From Planctomycetota bacterium (lineage in GTDB: Bacteria; Planctomycetota; MHYJ01; WSZJ01), in contig JBBTCT010000032.1 in NCBI GenBank assembly GCA_038060895.1, forward strand, positions 1-56,320: 56,320 bases of DNA, given 5' to 3'. The notes under the pieces were generated by a model. The model was given only the letters and a program-made list of their open reading frames with translations, searched no databases and was not told the DNA's origin. Below, piece by piece: positions 46,268 to 50,587 of this stretch; the first letter of the stretch is position 1, and the number at the start of each line of letters is the position of its first letter. The position numbers were made by a program, and so were the translations under genes.

Positions 46268-46492
46268 ATGACGGCGAAGAACACGGATGTCCGCTTCCAC
46301 GTCCGCTTCGACGGCCGCTCCTACGACCTCGAGCCGTCGCAGCTCGGCGTCGCCGTCGATGCCGCGGACGTGGACATCCACGAAGCGCTGGCCCGGCACT
46401 TCGACGTAGCGCGGCAGACGTTCCGGGCCTACGTCGTCGAGCGGCACCGGAACGGGTCGGTGACCGTTCGTCCGGAAGCCGTTTTCGGGTAG
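46268..46492 (+). CDS. Small protein, putative ubiquitin-like (beta-grasp) modifier
   Basis: 74 aa with a GGAGG RBS. Beta-beta-alpha-beta-beta pattern (FHVRF/SYDL/IHEALARHF/YVVE/VTVR), C-terminal ..EAVFG, linked to E1 and JAB genes. The fold is inferred. Confidence 0.65.
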   Translation: MTAKNTDVRFHVRFDGRSYDLEPSQLGVAVDAADVDIHEALARHFDVARQTFRAYVVERHRNGSVTVRPEAVFG

Positions 46493-46581
46493 CGGCGTCG
46501 TGCCTGCCCTGGGGCAGACGCCGCTGGCCTGAAAACCCTGAAAACCGCGAACTTTCCGCAGGCTGGCCCGATGAAAGTTCG

Positions 46582-46695
46582 AAGGGACGGGACGACGCCG
46601 CACCCCCGCCCGGGGCTTACAAACCTCTCCAAAAGGAAAGCATCACAAGCCCCCGGCACTTGCGCGGCGACGTCCCGGCCCCTCGACCGTCCCTT
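46582..46695 (+). ncRNA. Y-RNA-like structured RNA, unit 1
   Basis: GGGACG-A-CGCCG (46589-600) pairs with CGGCG-A-CGTCCC (46665-76). C-rich loop, inner stem GGGGCTT/AAGCCCC, TACAAAC at 46618-24, 3' ACTTG. Confidence 0.65.
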
Positions 46696-46752
46696 TGACA
46701 ACCTGGCGACGTTTTGACGCAGCGCGTCAATCTACCCGGCAGCCGGAACGCC

Positions 46753-46911
46753 CGGGCAACGACTTCGCGGCTCCCCACCTCCGGAGCCTACAAACTGGTA
46801 AACATTCACCGTCAGGTGAAGATGGGGTTCGAATCCCCCCCACGCCTGGGGAGACAGGCACCACAACTGACCGTCAAGCTCCTGTAACTCGAGCCGCGAA
46901 GCCGTTCCCCG
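46753..46911 (+). ncRNA. Y-RNA-like structured RNA, unit 2 (contains a T-arm)
   Basis: CTTCGCGGCTC (46763-73) and GAGCCGCGAAG (46891-901) form a perfect 11-bp stem. Inner GGAGC/GCTCC, TACAAAC at 46789-95, GGGG-TTCGAAT-CCCC at 46824-38, 3' ACTCG. Confidence 0.75.
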
Positions 46912-46915
46912 AAGC

Positions 46916-47040
46916 GCTTCTCTCTGCTCCGCACCCCACCCCGCGAAGCCTACAAACCTCGTTCTCCCCCAGGGGGGAACACCAGTCACTGAAACTGACC
47001 CGTTTTCGAAGCTTCTCAAACTTGTGCGGAGCAGAAAGGC
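46916..47040 (+). ncRNA. Y-RNA-like structured RNA, unit 3
   Basis: TCTGCTCCGCAC (46923-34) and GTGCGGAGCAGA (47024-35) form a perfect 12-bp stem. Inner GAAGC/GCTTC, TACAAAC at 46951-57, 3' ACTTG. Confidence 0.72.
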
Positions 47041-47041
47041 G

Positions 47042-47265: not shown

Positions 47266-47302
47266 GAACCGGCGCTTCAATGGGCGCCGGTTCTTTCATT
47301 TT
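47266..47302 (+). terminator. Terminator/attenuator-like hairpin between the RNA array and the Ro-like gene
   Basis: GAACCGGCGC-8nt-GCGCCGGTTC followed by TTTCATTTT, immediately before the AGGAG RBS. Confidence 0.65.
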
Positions 47303-47314
47303 CAGGAGTCGCGC

Positions 47315-48796
47315 ATGGCCGCCCGCATGTCGCCCCAGGAGCAGGACCTCCGGCTCCGGCTGCTCAACACGCTGCTCACAACGCCGCACCGGAAGCTCGA
47401 AGCGGTCCACCCCGTCCACGCGGAGCTGATCGCGCAGGACCCGCTCTTTTACGGACACCTCGCGGCGTGGTACGCGAAGAACGGGGACGTGCGCGACCAC
47501 ACCGAGACGTTCGTCATCGCCCTGGCCCTCTCGAGTTTCGAGGGACACCGCGAAGCCGGCCTGGCGCTCCTGCGCGAACTGCCGCCTTACGAAGTGCAGC
47601 GGGTCGTGGACTTCGTGAAGGGCCGCGTCGAGAAGAAGGGCGGCAAGGAAACGAAGTGGGGACTCTTCAAGAACGTCCCGCGATCGATGACGACCGAGGT
47701 CGAACGCTACCTCCGGGAGCGCGAAGGCGACGCCATGAAGTTTGACGGCGCGGTGCTGCACGCGCGGAAGGCGATGAAGCGCCTGTACGCCGCGCTCCAC
47801 ATCAAGCCCGGCCCGCGCGCGCAGGCGATTCTTTTCGACGACAACCCGCCCGTTGACTCGCGTCTGGCGGTGCTGAAGAAGATCGCGAAATCGACGGACC
47901 CGGGGGAACAGGCGACGCTCATTGCGACGCACCGGATTCCCTACCGGGTGGCGTCGTCGATCGTCGCGCAGATGACGCCGGCCGTCCTGGCCGCGCTCGT
48001 CGATGCCATGTCGGCGCAGGAGCTGATCAACAACCTTGCCAGCCTGCAGCGGCGCGGCGCGAGCGACCATCCGGAAATCGCGAAGCTGATCGAGGAGAAG
48101 CTGGAGTCCGCGAAATCCGCGAAGCGCGTCGCGACGTTCAAGCCGAAAGAGGCCGCAAAGGCCGCGCCACTGGACGAGAAAACGCAGGAGCAGCTCGCCG
48201 AGATCACGCAGCGGCAGGCGAGGGCGAAGGGCACGATCAAGAGGTCGACCGCGATCCTCGTCGACAAGAGCGGCTCCATGGAGCAGGCAATCGAGGTCGC
48301 CAAACGCCTCGGTTCGATGGTCGCCGGGATCATGGAGGCCCCGCTCTACGTCTTCGCGTTCGACACCCTCGCCTACCCGATCGCCGCTGCCGGACCGGAG
48401 CTCAAGGCTTGGGAGAAGGCGTTCGCAGGGATCAAGGCCGGCGGCGGCACGAGCTGCGGCGTGGCCCTGGACGCGATGATCCGCAAGGACATCGGCGTCG
48501 AGCAGATCGTCATCGTGACCGACGAGGGCGAAAACACGGCGCCGCTGTTCGTACCGACGCTTCAGAAGTACCGCGAAGCGCTGAAGGCGGACCCGGGGGT
48601 CGTGTTCGTGAAGGTCGGCCAGTCGAGCGACCAGCTGGAGAAACTCTGTCTCGCGGCGGGCGTGAGCGTGGACGCGTTCGAATTCCGCGGCGATTACTAC
48701 TCGCTTCCGAACCTGATCCCGATTCTGCAGCGACCGAGCAAGCTCGATCTGCTCGTTGAGATCATGGAGACGGCGTTGCCGGCGCGGAAAGCGTAG
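47315..48796 (+). CDS. Ro60/TROVE-like helical RNA-binding protein with a C-terminal vWA domain
   Basis: Basic helical N-domain with [12 protein letters not shown]...VRD, resembling the TROVE DP.F..LA.Y...R motif. v[32 protein letters not shown]. Adjacent tRNA-like RNAs. Confidence 0.75.
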
Positions 48797-48802
48797 GTCG
48801 GA

Positions 48803-49627
48803 ATGAAACACCGCGACCTCATCCAGAGGCTGGCTTCCTCCGACCGGGCTTCCCTCGCACGTGAATTTCTGTCCCCGGTCTTCGCCTCGGGACGCGTGAG
48901 GCTGCGTCTCTCCGGCGTCGTCGTCGAGATGCAAATCACGCGCCGTCCAGCCGGCTTCTCCTCGGGCTGGGCCATTCTCCGCCCGACCTCCCCGCGAACA
49001 GCCGAAGTTCTCCGCCCGGCGCCCCTCGCCGAGGTGAAGCGATTCCTCGATCTATTTCCGCGCGCCCGCCTGGTTGCCGCCGCGCTTCACGGCTCCACCT
49101 GGCTCGCGCTTCCGACCGCCGCACCCCAGAAGGGCGTGCGCGTGAAGGGCCTCGCGCCGGTCGCCCTCGCGCCGCGACTCGCGCTGTTCGACACCGCCGT
49201 CACTCGATTCGACGGCTCGCTCTTCCTGTTCGAGTCCGCCGAGCGCGCTTCAACGGCAGGCTGGCTGCGCGCCCAGCTGGAGGCGGGAACGGCGCCGGAC
49301 GGCCTGCGGCGCGCCGGCCTGGTGCCGGCGGAGCGGGAGGCCTATGCGATGCAGTGGAAGCTGCGGGAGGAATTGCGCAAGCCGCCGGACCAGCGTCGGC
49401 TGGAAGAGGCGCTCGGGGCGGCGGACGCGGCGCTGGTGAAGTACTCCGCCCGGTCGGACCAGTTGACGGTGACGTACATCGTGGACGGCCGGGAATTCAC
49501 TTCGATCGTCGAACGCGGCGATCTCACCGTGGTGAGCGCGGGAATCTGCCTTGACGGGACCGACCGCACATTCGACCTGACCTCGCTCGTGTCCGTCATG
49601 CGGGAGGCGCGGCGCCGTGATGAATGA
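48803..49627 (+). CDS. Hypothetical protein with a candidate E2/UBC-like C-terminal domain
   Basis: Co-operonic. Its only Cys lies in SAGICLDG..FDLTSLVSVM, recalling the UBC G-x-ICLD active-site segment. The E2 call is an inference. Confidence 0.55.
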   Translation: MKHRDLIQRLASSDRASLAREFLSPVFASGRVRLRLSGVVVEMQITRRPAGFSSGWAILRPTSPRTAEVLRPAPLAEVKRFLDLFPRARLVAAALHGSTWLALPTAAPQKGVRVKGLAPVALAPRLALFDTAVTRFDGSLFLFESAERASTAGWLRAQLEAGTAPDGLRRAGLVPAEREAYAMQWKLREELRKPPDQRRLEEALGAADAALVKYSARSDQLTVTYIVDGREFTSIVERGDLTVVSAGICLDGTDRTFDLTSLVSVMREARRRDE

Positions 49628-49961
49628 ACGAAGCGCGGTGGTGCTCGCGAGCGGCCGGCTTGTGCAATGGCGCGAAGGAGGACCGGCTCACGTTGAATTC
49701 GACGCGCGCCGGGTCCTGCGCAGGGAGGAATCGAAGGGCGACATCGCCGGGTTTTTCCACACGCATCCGCCCGGCGTCCCCGGGATGAGCGCACGCGACG
49801 GCCGCACGATGCAGGCCTGGGCGCAGTGCTTCGGCCGCCCGCTTCTCTGCGCGATCCGCTGCGGCCGCCGGACCCGCGCGTGGCTGTGCGGCAAGGATGG
49901 CAGCGCGCGGGAGGTCGCCTCCGTTATCCTCAAGGGCGCTTCCATTCAATGGACTCCCTGA
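49620..49961 (+). CDS. JAB/MPN+ (JAMM) metalloprotease
   Basis: N-terminal Glu (NER) and H-T-H-x7-S-x2-D (HTHPPGVPGMSARD). Overlaps both neighbours. Confidence 0.85.
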   Translation: MNERSAVVLASGRLVQWREGGPAHVEFDARRVLRREESKGDIAGFFHTHPPGVPGMSARDGRTMQAWAQCFGRPLLCAIRCGRRTRAWLCGKDGSAREVASVILKGASIQWTP

Positions 49962-50587
49962 ACCACGAGAAAGCCTTCCGCGGTCAGCCGGCGCTCGACC
50001 GGCTGGCGTCCGCGTCGATCGTGGTCTGCGGCGCGGGCGCGGTCGGCTCGAACCTGGTGGACACGCTCGCGCGGCAGGGGGCGAAAAAGCTGCGTGTCAT
50101 CGACCGGGACCGCGTCGAACCGCACAACGTCGCGACGCAGGTCTATCTCGCCGAGCAGGCAGGGCAATGGAAAGTGGAAGCGCTTCGCGACCTGGTCTTC
50201 CGCGCCACGGGCATCGAGATTGACGCGATGCGTCAAGAACTCACGCCGAAGAACGTCGCGAAGCTCCTCGCCAGCGCCGACCTCGTCGTGGACGGCTTCG
50301 ACAATTCCGCTTCACGCCGCGCCGTCACCGAGGCCTGCGCCGCCACCGGCCTTCCCTGCCTGCACGTGGGCCTGAACGCCGGTTACGCCGAGATCCGCTG
50401 GAATGAGCGCTACCGGGTTCCTTCAGACGCGGAGGGCGACGTGTGCGACTACCCGCTCGCCCGCAACCTGGTGCTGATCGTCGCTGGCGCCGCCGCCGAG
50501 ACAGCGCTGAAGTGGCTCTGCGAGAAGCGCAAGGAGGACCGGTCCGTAACGCTGCTGGACCTGCGCATCAATGAAGAAAACGAGTAA
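49949..50587 (+). CDS. ThiF/MoeB/E1-family adenylyltransferase
   Basis: GAGAVG, IDRDRVEPHN..TQ, K, DLVVDGFDN..SR, and a candidate catalytic Cys in DVCDYP. Start ATG 49949. Confidence 0.92.
   Translation: MDSLNHEKAFRGQPALDRLASASIVVCGAGAVGSNLVDTLARQGAKKLRVIDRDRVEPHNVATQVYLAEQAGQWKVEALRDLVFRATGIEIDAMRQELTPKNVAKLLASADLVVDGFDNSASRRAVTEACAATGLPCLHVGLNAGYAEIRWNERYRVPSDAEGDVCDYPLARNLVLIVAGAAAETALKWLCEKRKEDRSVTLLDLRINEENE

Follow-up and report, generated by a model that had tools for sequence, protein, structure and literature searches.

We describe here a compact locus at 46268-50587, on the + strand of a 56,320-nucleotide stretch of DNA from a Planctomycetota bacterium (contig JBBTCT010000032.1; this whole stretch is called the window), which encodes a 74-amino-acid (aa) protein, four RNA units, a 493-aa protein, a 274-aa protein, a JAMM peptidase and a ThiF-type activating enzyme (E1). 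According to our analysis, it may represent a horizontally spread, self-contained module in which a ribonucleoprotein (RNP) of the Ro60-Y RNA type is joined to a small conjugation kit for a ubiquitin-like protein (Ubl), and whose task would be to guard the RNAs of translation; we give this reading a probability of about 0.45. The four RNAs belong to a large covarying RNA family, the 493-aa protein is predicted to be a divergent member of the Ro60 fold, and at least eight phyla carry the gene order.

The family of the 493-aa Ro-like protein comprises at least 3,069 proteins at E≤0.001 among 8,000 candidates scored. Among contigs taken from one genome per species, at least 612 stretches match and at least 602 encode a relative; from the latter a set of 80 related loci was kept (given L numbers below), with proteins 49-92% identical to the window's, many of these loci being cut by contig ends. 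The features of the locus are as follows, where R1 is the covariance model built for the RNA units.

46268..46492, + strand: Ubl candidate, a 74-aa open reading frame (ORF) with a free C-terminal Gly, ending ...RPEAVFG-stop
46583..46690, + strand: RNA unit U1 (R1 match at 46593-46672, 33.3 bits, E 9.5e-6)
46763..46901, + strand: RNA unit U2 (R1 49.3 bits; 10/10 stem pairs)
46924..47034, + strand: RNA unit U3 (R1 42.5 bits; 10/10 stem pairs)
47053..47224, + strand: RNA unit U4 (R1 110.3 bits, seed member; Rfam YrlA 34.9 bits)
47266..47303, + strand: terminator-like hairpin of 12 bp, 8 of them GC, followed by TTTCATTTTC and lying 12 nt before the Ro-like start codon
47315..48796, + strand: predicted Ro60-fold protein, 493 aa (AlphaFold2 model and Foldseek)
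48803..49627, + strand: 274-aa protein, E2-like candidate, with an OB-fold (oligonucleotide/oligosaccharide-binding) N-terminal half and a C-terminal Cys domain bearing C249; its GICLD motif is residues 247-251
49617..49961, + strand: JAMM/JAB metallopeptidase, 114 aa, with HTHPPGVPGMSARD, that is HxHx7SxxD
49949..50587, + strand: minimal ThiF-type E1, 212 aa from its ATG; the ORF opens at 49826 (GTG, 253 aa)

The genes of the 493-aa and 274-aa proteins are 6 bp apart, the latter overlaps the JAB gene by 11 nt, and JAB and E1 overlap by 13 nt given an E1 start at 49949, where the ATG agrees with the aligned relatives. The gap of 822 bp between the Ubl and Ro-like genes holds the word CYTACAAAC at 46616, 46787, 46949 and 47078, one per unit. 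A first-pass annotation, made from the letters of this DNA, had already described a Gly-ending protein, four RNAs and four tightly spaced downstream genes on one strand, and both the ORFs and the units confirm this anatomy.

RNA units and their variable modules

The model R1 was made from an alignment of 22 YrlA-like units, with U4 in the seed and U1-U3 outside it, and was searched against the window and 79 related loci (0.81 Mb, both strands, E≤0.01). It gave 263 matches, all on the strand of the Ro-like gene; those confined to model positions ~57-134 coincide with ordinary tRNA genes of upstream arrays. All four window units were found on the + strand, U4 by construction as a member of the seed. 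Counting the 150 best R1 matches alone, units occur in 63 of the 80 loci.

The RNAalifold consensus of the 22 YrlA-like units contains 25 pairs, 18 of them with compensatory changes. Among the 150 best R1 matches, in an alignment that had been fitted to the R1 model, 94.4% of cells are standard pairs as compared with 36-47% when the 3' partners are slid, double changes occur at 25/25 pairs, and none of 500 shuffles reaches the observed values. The linker word YTACAAAY is about tenfold denser in the related Ubl-Ro gaps (45 occurrences in 51.6 kb) than elsewhere (93 in 1,101 kb). The four window RNAs thus belong to a large covarying RNA family, and the expectation of a Y-RNA-like array is borne out by units that adjoin the Ro-like gene, are closed by a long stem in which an internal loop is conserved, and covary in their stems.

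One architecture is shared by 55 units: the 5' closing strand, CCCNAC, the 5' strand of a second helix, GC-YUACAAAC, a variable module of 16-152 nt, then GC, the 3' strand of the second helix, ACUYG and the 3' closing strand. Closing stems change in sequence from unit to unit with complementarity kept, and the core letters conserved at ≥90% read G..CCC.A ... GC.UACA.AC ... GC ... ACU.G..CG. In the window, U2 has a 10-bp closing stem, a CCCCAC loop, the linker GCCUACAAAC and a T-arm module (GGGGUUCGAAUCCCC); U3 repeats this core with a module of two hairpins, and U4 repeats it with a YrlA-like, tRNA-like domain made of a T-arm, a capped acceptor-like stem and a D-arm. U1 is degenerate in the core (CCCCCGC replacing CCCNAC) and has a short module of 24 nt.

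The modules appear to copy pieces of translation RNAs. Rfam YrlA (RF02553) matches U4 at 47101-47188 with 34.9 bits, below its gathering score of 69, and matches units of six related loci with 28.8-39.1 bits; in the gap 46493-47314 ARAGORN finds no tRNA, and no Rfam family reaches its gathering threshold. The T-arm of U2 is identical over 13-14 nt to tRNAs of the window's own genome, and in U2 and U4 together T- and D-arm stretches of 13-19 nt are common to the genome's own tRNAs. The earlier claim of tRNA-like RNAs holds in part, for U4 with its YrlA-like domain and, by virtue of a T-arm alone, for U2; no tRNA arm is present in U1 or U3. In the YrlA-like class the acceptor-like stem is capped by a loop, so that no free CCA end can form.

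Related loci extend this range. Inside units of L022 and L010 the Rfam tRNA model scores above its gathering threshold (54.2 bits over model positions 4-67 and 49.3 bits over 7-64, respectively), and ARAGORN reports tRNAs within the units of a number of loci, most of them cyanobacterial, where some have anticodons (atc, cta) that are not usual in bacteria; the 'tRNA-Pyl (cta)' calls in L077, L078 and L080 coincide with units that precede the Ubl gene. Three modules (L022:4500-4520, L010:4320-4340, L038:3715-3735) carry, in the sense strand, a 19-nt word of 23S rRNA, presumably of the H69-H71 region, which is also found in the 23S gene of the window's own genome at C33 ~3061-3079 (C33:1044-4036 is large-subunit rRNA, 2648 bits). 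A partly matching 23S stretch occurs in L020 at ~6750 and L023 at ~6765; blastn of one rRNA-like unit against Escherichia coli genomes gave no match.

Many small hairpins in the units have 7-nt loops of anticodon-loop form, as judged by eye. The U4 hairpin GGA-CUNNNAC-UCC (47087-47099) is the same in the window and in its close relatives L001 and L002 apart from three letters in the middle of the loop (CUU, CUC and CCU), which resembles a changing anticodon; no statistic goes with this observation.

The five proteins

The AlphaFold2 model of the 493-aa protein (predicted local distance difference test, pLDDT, 83.1) has a ring of helical repeats followed by a vWA domain. In Foldseek, its top 12 Protein Data Bank (PDB) rows are all Ro60/Rsr chains of human, Xenopus, Deinococcus and phage phiLo, with E from 1.5e-10 to 6.8e-8, 464-553 aligned columns and template-modelling (TM) scores of 0.45-0.60; isolated vWA domains come after them. 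A profile of 24 relatives searched against the PDB matches the Ro60 of Thermus phage phiLo (9l5y/9kop) at 1.5e-4 and human RO60 at 1.8e-3. The metal ion-dependent adhesion site (MIDAS) motif DxSxS is complete and invariant (D317, S319, S321). For Pfam vWA_Ro60 (PF25045) the relatives score 23.4-27.1 bits against a cut-off of 27.7, and the window protein gives weak generic VWA matches only. We consider the 493-aa protein, on these models and profiles, to be a predicted divergent Ro60-fold protein, and it is the sole one found in the window's genome.

The 274-aa protein is modelled with higher confidence (pLDDT 93.0). Its N-terminal part has a helix, two five-strand beta units (~22-72 and 87-147) and then helices; its C-terminal part has a helix at 195-206, four strands at 210-245, a loop with Cys249 and a helix at 259-271. 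Residues 85-148 match RNA-type OB folds (S17, S1/CSD, IF1, TRAM, PAN-N) with Z of 5.6-7.2 and a root-mean-square deviation of ~2 A over ~55 residues, and weak Foldseek rows are tandem-OB proteins, namely RNase II, Dis3L2 and the Mpa inter-domain, from which the N-terminal half is predicted to contain at least one OB fold. Invariant residues are G247, C249, L250, D254, F257, D258 and L259 (G-I-C-L...D..FDL). Eukaryotic conjugating enzymes (E2) carry the signature HPN...GxICLDIL. It is plausible, judging from topology and motif alone, that the GICLD protein is E2-like, as had been proposed before; this we regard as a reasoned hypothesis.

The 274-aa protein has no Pfam, NCBIfam or PADLOC match and none by PDB profiles. 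Whole-model Foldseek and VIA rows are filled by OB folds and are uninformative on the C-terminal domain, and the same is true of hhalign of the C-terminal profile against the lone Prok-E2_B sequence from 301 genomes of the phylum (probability 0.2). An Atlas search with the C-terminal part, which has a poor Atlas model (pLDDT 0.50), gave one neighbour cluster that is 17% Prok-E2_B (TM 0.48/0.40). The C-terminal profile retrieved 992 proteins from 1.84 billion representatives and, among the 150 matches listed, all are of the same family.

The Ubl ends in RPEAV[FY]G in 55/55 orthologues printed, with Gly always last, in agreement with the first view of it as a small Gly-ending protein; its invariant residues are R13, G16, S18, G63, R68, P69, A71 and G74. 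It has no Pfam or PDB sequence match, and in the Atlas its nearest structural neighbours, members of its own family apart, are Prok_Ub, BilA_UBL_2 and PB1 domains (TM 0.52-0.56). The E1 assignment is firm, with Pfam ThiF at 6.6e-33, no rhodanese domain and no CxxC pairs. In 33 sequences GxGxxG, DxDR, DN..R, C137 and C166 are invariant (212-aa numbering), the two cysteines being candidate catalytic residues. PADLOC E1-E2 models match the E1 part only (1.4e-23), and the best NCBIfam matches are ThiF and MoeB adenylyltransferases, all below cut-offs.

The JAB peptidase matches Pfam Prok-JAB at E 0.0015 (18.9 bits against a cut-off of 25) and, weakly, 11 PADLOC JAB models; HxHx7SxxD and an upstream EE are conserved across 13 sequences, and the motif is intact in the window, as its naming as a JAMM protease would demand. 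No PADLOC model matches the Ubl, the Ro-like protein or the 274-aa protein, and no cyclase is found by PADLOC among the five genes.

Spread of the module and its surroundings

A failure of the genes to occur together in other genomes had been named beforehand as refuting the idea, and they recur widely across the 80 loci. By tblastn, 55 loci have the Ubl upstream, 49 have the 274-aa protein downstream and 46 have the E1, with constant order and strand. The layout is far beyond chance because the same order recurs in other genomes. The loci come from Planctomycetota, Cyanobacteria, Chloroflexota, Acidobacteriota and Armatimonadota, and from further metagenome-assembled genomes labelled Actinomycetota, Delta- and Gammaproteobacteria, Burkholderiales, Clostridia and Xenobia; L026 and L027 seem to be one sequence filed twice. 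Within the window's phylum the spread is patchy, as the Ro-like protein is present in 5 of 301 genomes, the window's own included, in 4 of 237 genera, and in one of three other genomes of the window's genus.

The module is also carried by phages. Among 50,697 phage records one, LR756511.1 (595 kb, uncultured phage), has the whole of it: Ubl, nine units, the Ro-like protein (59% identity), the 274-aa protein, JAB and E1. Eleven IMG/VR viral contigs of 23-572 kb have it too: units occur in 11/11 (39 matches, all on the + strand), and 10 contigs hold the Ubl and 9 the 274-aa protein. JAB was found in 4 of them and E1 in 3, two counts that are limited by flanks of 4 kb. Two cyanobacterial plasmid records also match.

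In 10 of the 80 loci a tRNA array lies directly upstream on the same strand, and the flank contains between 5 and 25 free tRNA genes; read locus by locus, ARAGORN gives 10 to 27 tRNA genes, and four to five in L054. Such upstream arrays are found at

L006:586-1636
L014:1222-3047
L038:148-2518
L040:90-2104
L043:5-2530
L050:336-4083
L069:24-2250
L054:596-959

and in a Nostoc locus ARAGORN places a tmRNA-like gene shortly ahead of the units (L078:2510-2975). Cyanobacterial and other versions have extra conserved same-strand genes inside the module, namely a ~242-aa protein among the units (L080:3281-4009), a 511-aa protein after the Ro-like gene (L080:6470-8005), a DUF6847 protein (L053:8381-8839) and a ~300-aa protein before the Cys protein (L041:6444-7271), and of these only the DUF6847 protein has a Pfam family. 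A second, larger protein of the Ro-like cluster (712-721 aa, weak VWA_2) lies a few kb downstream in two loci (L044:9189-11327, L055:6169-8334).

The genes around the module in the window encode PGI, a VWA protein and proteins that match no Pfam family, and no defence island is seen. No rtcB, thiamine, molybdopterin, cysteine desulfurase or PP-loop thiolase gene is among them, which agrees with what had been read at first about rtcB and the thiamine and molybdopterin genes; rtcB of this genome sits on another contig. Directly upstream (42237-44291 and 44383-46185) two large paralogous proteins of 684 and 600 aa are encoded, with Gly/Thr/Asp repeats (GxDxxxGTxDD-like), lipoprotein-like N-termini and no Pfam family.

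A scan for terminator-like hairpins gave 3 sites in the region against a shuffle mean of 3.7, which makes the hairpin before the Ro-like gene non-significant by scan and notable by its position; a promoter scan of 45900-50900 found no sigma-70-like promoter. Metatranscriptome contigs of two runs from one aquifer sample are identical to 46100-46430, 47193-47369, 47703-47968, 48331-48758, 48418-48618, 48865-49086 and 50212-50431, with a depth of 2-4.5 across all matched parts. These contigs cover parts of the locus only, the uncovered stretches, including U1-U3, being uninformative; a DNA run of the same aquifer study also contains the locus, and DNA carry-over into the RNA libraries is possible.

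Possible function and relation to known systems

We propose the following order of events. The Ubl gene and the RNA units would share one transcript, from which the units would be excised as RNAs of ~80-170 nt that each have a closing stem of their own. The Ro-like ring would sit on the conserved RNA core, that is the closing stem, the CCCNAC/ACUYG internal loop and the second helix, much as Ro60 sits on the Y RNA helix. Each RNA would then display a different copy of a translation RNA, such as T- and D-arms or anticodon-like hairpins and, in relatives, near-whole tRNA bodies or the 19-nt piece of 23S rRNA. The OB-fold half may hold the 274-aa protein on the RNP, probably at the conserved single-stranded GC-YUACA-AC linker, after the model of the Y RNA tether of PNPase. 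The E1 would adenylate the terminal Gly of the Ubl, carry it as a Cys thioester and hand it over to Cys249 in the 274-aa protein. From there the Ubl would pass to a protein that engages either the RNA on display or one that the ring has caught; JAMM, where present, would take it off. The setting might be the surveillance or management of tRNA and rRNA under attack or under translational stress, in bacteria and giant phages alike.

The tether by Y RNA uses the S1/KH domains of PNPase. It is the conserved neighbour with an RNA-type OB fold that is the Cys protein here, for which reason we read the module as RNA-tethered conjugation, by comparison with Deinococcus, where Y RNA tethers Ro60 to PNPase according to the available text of two reports (PMC4201824; bioRxiv 10.1101/312249). 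In the available text of PMC8421152 cyanobacterial L-arrays of tRNA genes are induced by translational stress, together with rtcB, and adjoin RNA-processing genes. The diversity of the modules, the adjoining tRNA arrays, the stress induction of such arrays and the giant-phage carriage together point to a contest over translation RNAs as the field of action.

Several results weigh against this proposal. The 493-aa protein has no match to Pfam TROVE (PF05731) at E≤1, so that of the earlier term 'TROVE-like + vWA' the predicted Ro60 fold stands and the Pfam family does not; the whole genome of the window is also without a TROVE match, whereas control genomes do match. JAB was found by tblastn in 12 of the 80 loci only. 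A link of the Cys domain to E2 was not found in any sequence or fold search, which leaves the assignment of the GICLD protein to E2 with its topology and its invariant GIC-L motif. For the Ubl, Atlas neighbours alone give lead-level support to a predicted beta-grasp fold. The transcription of the locus has at most a weak hint behind it. ARAGORN-called tRNAs in cyanobacterial units mean, moreover, that the scaffold could be the leader-trailer duplex of a tRNA precursor.

This last point leads to a view that we consider improbable, namely that the module extends tRNA arrays: the units would be spare or unusual tRNAs in precursor or caged form, sharing a conserved leader-trailer duplex; to chaperone or gate their processing would be the part of the Ro-like ring, and the Ubl kit would merely regulate this. 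Besides the odd anticodons and the Rfam tRNA matches inside units, it draws on the long same-strand arrays directly upstream of ten loci and on the behaviour and neighbours of the L-arrays just mentioned (PMC8421152), and is opposed by the 70 of 80 loci that have no array, by the lack of a whole tRNA in any unit of the window or its close relatives and of any tRNA arm in U1 and U3, by the modules that copy 23S rRNA and by the loop-capped stems of the YrlA-like units, which can form no free CCA end. An anti-phage sensor is likewise unlikely in our estimate. The first-pass annotation had put forward a sensor of this kind, or else an E3-like adaptor; tRNA-like decoys would report anticodon nucleases or phage attack, and the RNP would then have phage proteins tagged with the Ubl, in the way that Bil modifies tail proteins. 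The patchy spread suggestive of horizontal transfer, the diversity of the RNA modules and the resemblance of the E1 to the E1 part of CBASS-type E1-E2 models would suit it, and bacterial Ubl/E1/E2/JAB operons are known in anti-phage immunity, as the accessible parts of PMC11601596 and PMC10557695 describe; against it stand the complete module in a 595-kb phage record and its presence in 11 viral contigs of 23-572 kb, the lack of any PADLOC match for the Ubl, Ro-like and 274-aa proteins and the lack of a defence-island context in the window. Phage carriage and the adjoining tRNA arrays favour a guarding of the translation RNAs of the carrier genome, whichever it is, over a strictly anti-phage role.

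Ubl/E1 pairs are linked to tRNA thiolation, and the RNAs here carry T-arms and anticodon-like loops, from which one might imagine a sulfur carrier: the E1 would thiocarboxylate the Ubl, as happens with Urm1/Uba4 and TtuB/TtuC, and the sulfur would serve to thiolate tRNAs or the tRNA-like RNAs, with Cys249 as a persulfide relay. The best NCBIfam matches of the E1, ThiF and MoeB below cut-offs, agree with this. We find it quite unlikely, as the Ubl ends in FG or YG and never in GG in 55/55 orthologues, the E1 has no rhodanese, the neighbourhood in the window is without cysteine desulfurase, PP-loop thiolase, thiamine or molybdopterin genes, and a JAMM peptidase would have no processing role, since the Gly is already free. 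The adenylation chemistry of E1 parallels aminoacyl-tRNA synthesis, which allows the thought that the Ubl is joined to RNA instead of protein, in a reaction akin to aminoacylation, where the activated Gly would be placed on a ribose hydroxyl of the displayed or captured RNA. The RNA-type OB fold of the 274-aa protein would be in place for that, yet the acceptor-like stems of the YrlA-like units are capped and the invariant residue is Cys, not Ser, and we hold this to be very improbable, even with the oxyesters through which Bub pathways act according to the available text of PMC11601596.

Within our proposal of an RNP guarding translation RNAs, we may even suggest a bait-and-tag mechanism, doubtful as it is at present, in which the array is a repertoire of scaffold RNAs, each with a different piece of tRNA or rRNA, and any protein that seizes a bait, be it a ribotoxin, an anticodon nuclease, a modifying enzyme or a phage or host factor, receives the Ubl from the RNA-tethered, E2-like enzyme on the Ro-like ring. 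If true, no earlier case would exist of a ubiquitin-like ligase whose substrate choice is programmed by RNA, and it would be common to bacteria and giant phages. The large modular RNA family, with 263 R1 matches in ~0.8 Mb, makes the idea of RNA mimics as bait or decoy directly testable.

Whatever its mechanism, a predicted Ro60-fold protein is hard-wired to an E1, a Gly-ended modifier and a protein with an OB fold and an invariant Cys in at least 46-55 of 80 loci and in many phyla, and this would be a concrete and testable effector of a Ro RNP besides exoribonucleases and RNA ligases. The conservation of Ro60 and Y RNAs extends from bacteria to humans, and the module may bear on the ligand of the vWA/MIDAS face of Ro60 and on the reason why Y RNAs imitate tRNA. 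Its links to tRNA arrays and giant phages place it in the contest over the translation apparatus, and it has a parallel in humans, where an association of Ro60 with the ubiquitin ligase Ro52/TRIM21 has long been debated.

Among the nearest known systems are bacterial Ro60 (Rsr) with YrlA and YrlB, as in Salmonella rsr-yrlBA-rtcBA, the Deinococcus Ro60-Y RNA-PNPase complex and the phage phiLo Ro60 with Yrl1/2. Common to both sides are the ring and vWA fold (here by prediction), several small same-strand RNAs beside the gene, the long closing stem, the conserved internal loop, in U4 the tRNA-like T/D-arm domain and, judging from the accessible part of PMC12135203, the occurrence in phages. Unlike them, our protein has no Pfam TROVE match, its RNAs reach about half of the YrlA gathering score and have a core of their own (CCCNAC ... 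GC-YUACA-AC ... ACUYG), the arrays reach 8-9 units with variable modules that go beyond the YrlA type, and the linked genes are Ubl, E1, Cys protein and JAB instead of RtcB/RtcA, with PNPase not implied. The survey of Chen et al. 2014, in its available part, started from Pfam TROVE proteins and reported few YrlA RNAs in cyanobacteria; because of that starting point it probably missed the Ro-like family.

With Ubl/E1/E2/JAB operons (types 6a-6e of Iyer et al. 2006, Bil, CBASS Cap2/Cap3 and Bub) the module shares a conserved terminal Gly, a rhodanese-free ThiF E1, a JAB adjoining the E1, a Cys-bearing partner and a sporadic distribution (PMC1779556, accessible part). None of the five operon types, as they are set out in that part of PMC1779556, has a Ro60-like, vWA or RNA component, and the module differs further in its E2 candidate, one half of which is of the OB-fold kind and whose sequence gives no E2 signal in searches, in the lack of JAB from most loci by tblastn and in the Ubl and Cys protein without PADLOC matches. 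Compared with CBASS Cap2/Cap3, it has neither a CD-NTase nor an E1-E2 fusion, and compared with ThiS/MoaD sulfur carriers, it has no Gly-Gly, no rhodanese and no thiamine or molybdopterin neighbours.

Arrays of 10-27 tRNA genes upstream in 10/80 loci and the horizontal spread are like those of the cyanobacterial L-arrays in the available text of PMC8421152, whereas the window itself has no tRNA array. The genome of L080, Nostoc carneum NIES-2107, is shown in Figure 6 of that paper, the text of which mentions no Ro60, vWA, ThiF or ubiquitin, a statement on the text only, as Figure 6B or the supplements may show the genes as hypothetical proteins. A full-text literature search, incomplete in coverage, returned no paper joining Ro60, TROVE or Rsr with Ubl, E1 or JAB. 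The eukaryotic Ro/SSA particle (Ro60, Y RNA and the E3 ligase Ro52/TRIM21) also pairs an RNP of the Ro60 type with ubiquitin-type conjugation; the association of Ro60 with Ro52/TRIM21 in human cells is debated, as the accessible part of PMC11231564 relates, whereas the link in the module is a hard-wired operon, and we claim no homology of the conjugation parts. We rate the module as a new branch of the Ro60/Y-RNA systems with a new class of effector, built from parts that are themselves of known kinds.

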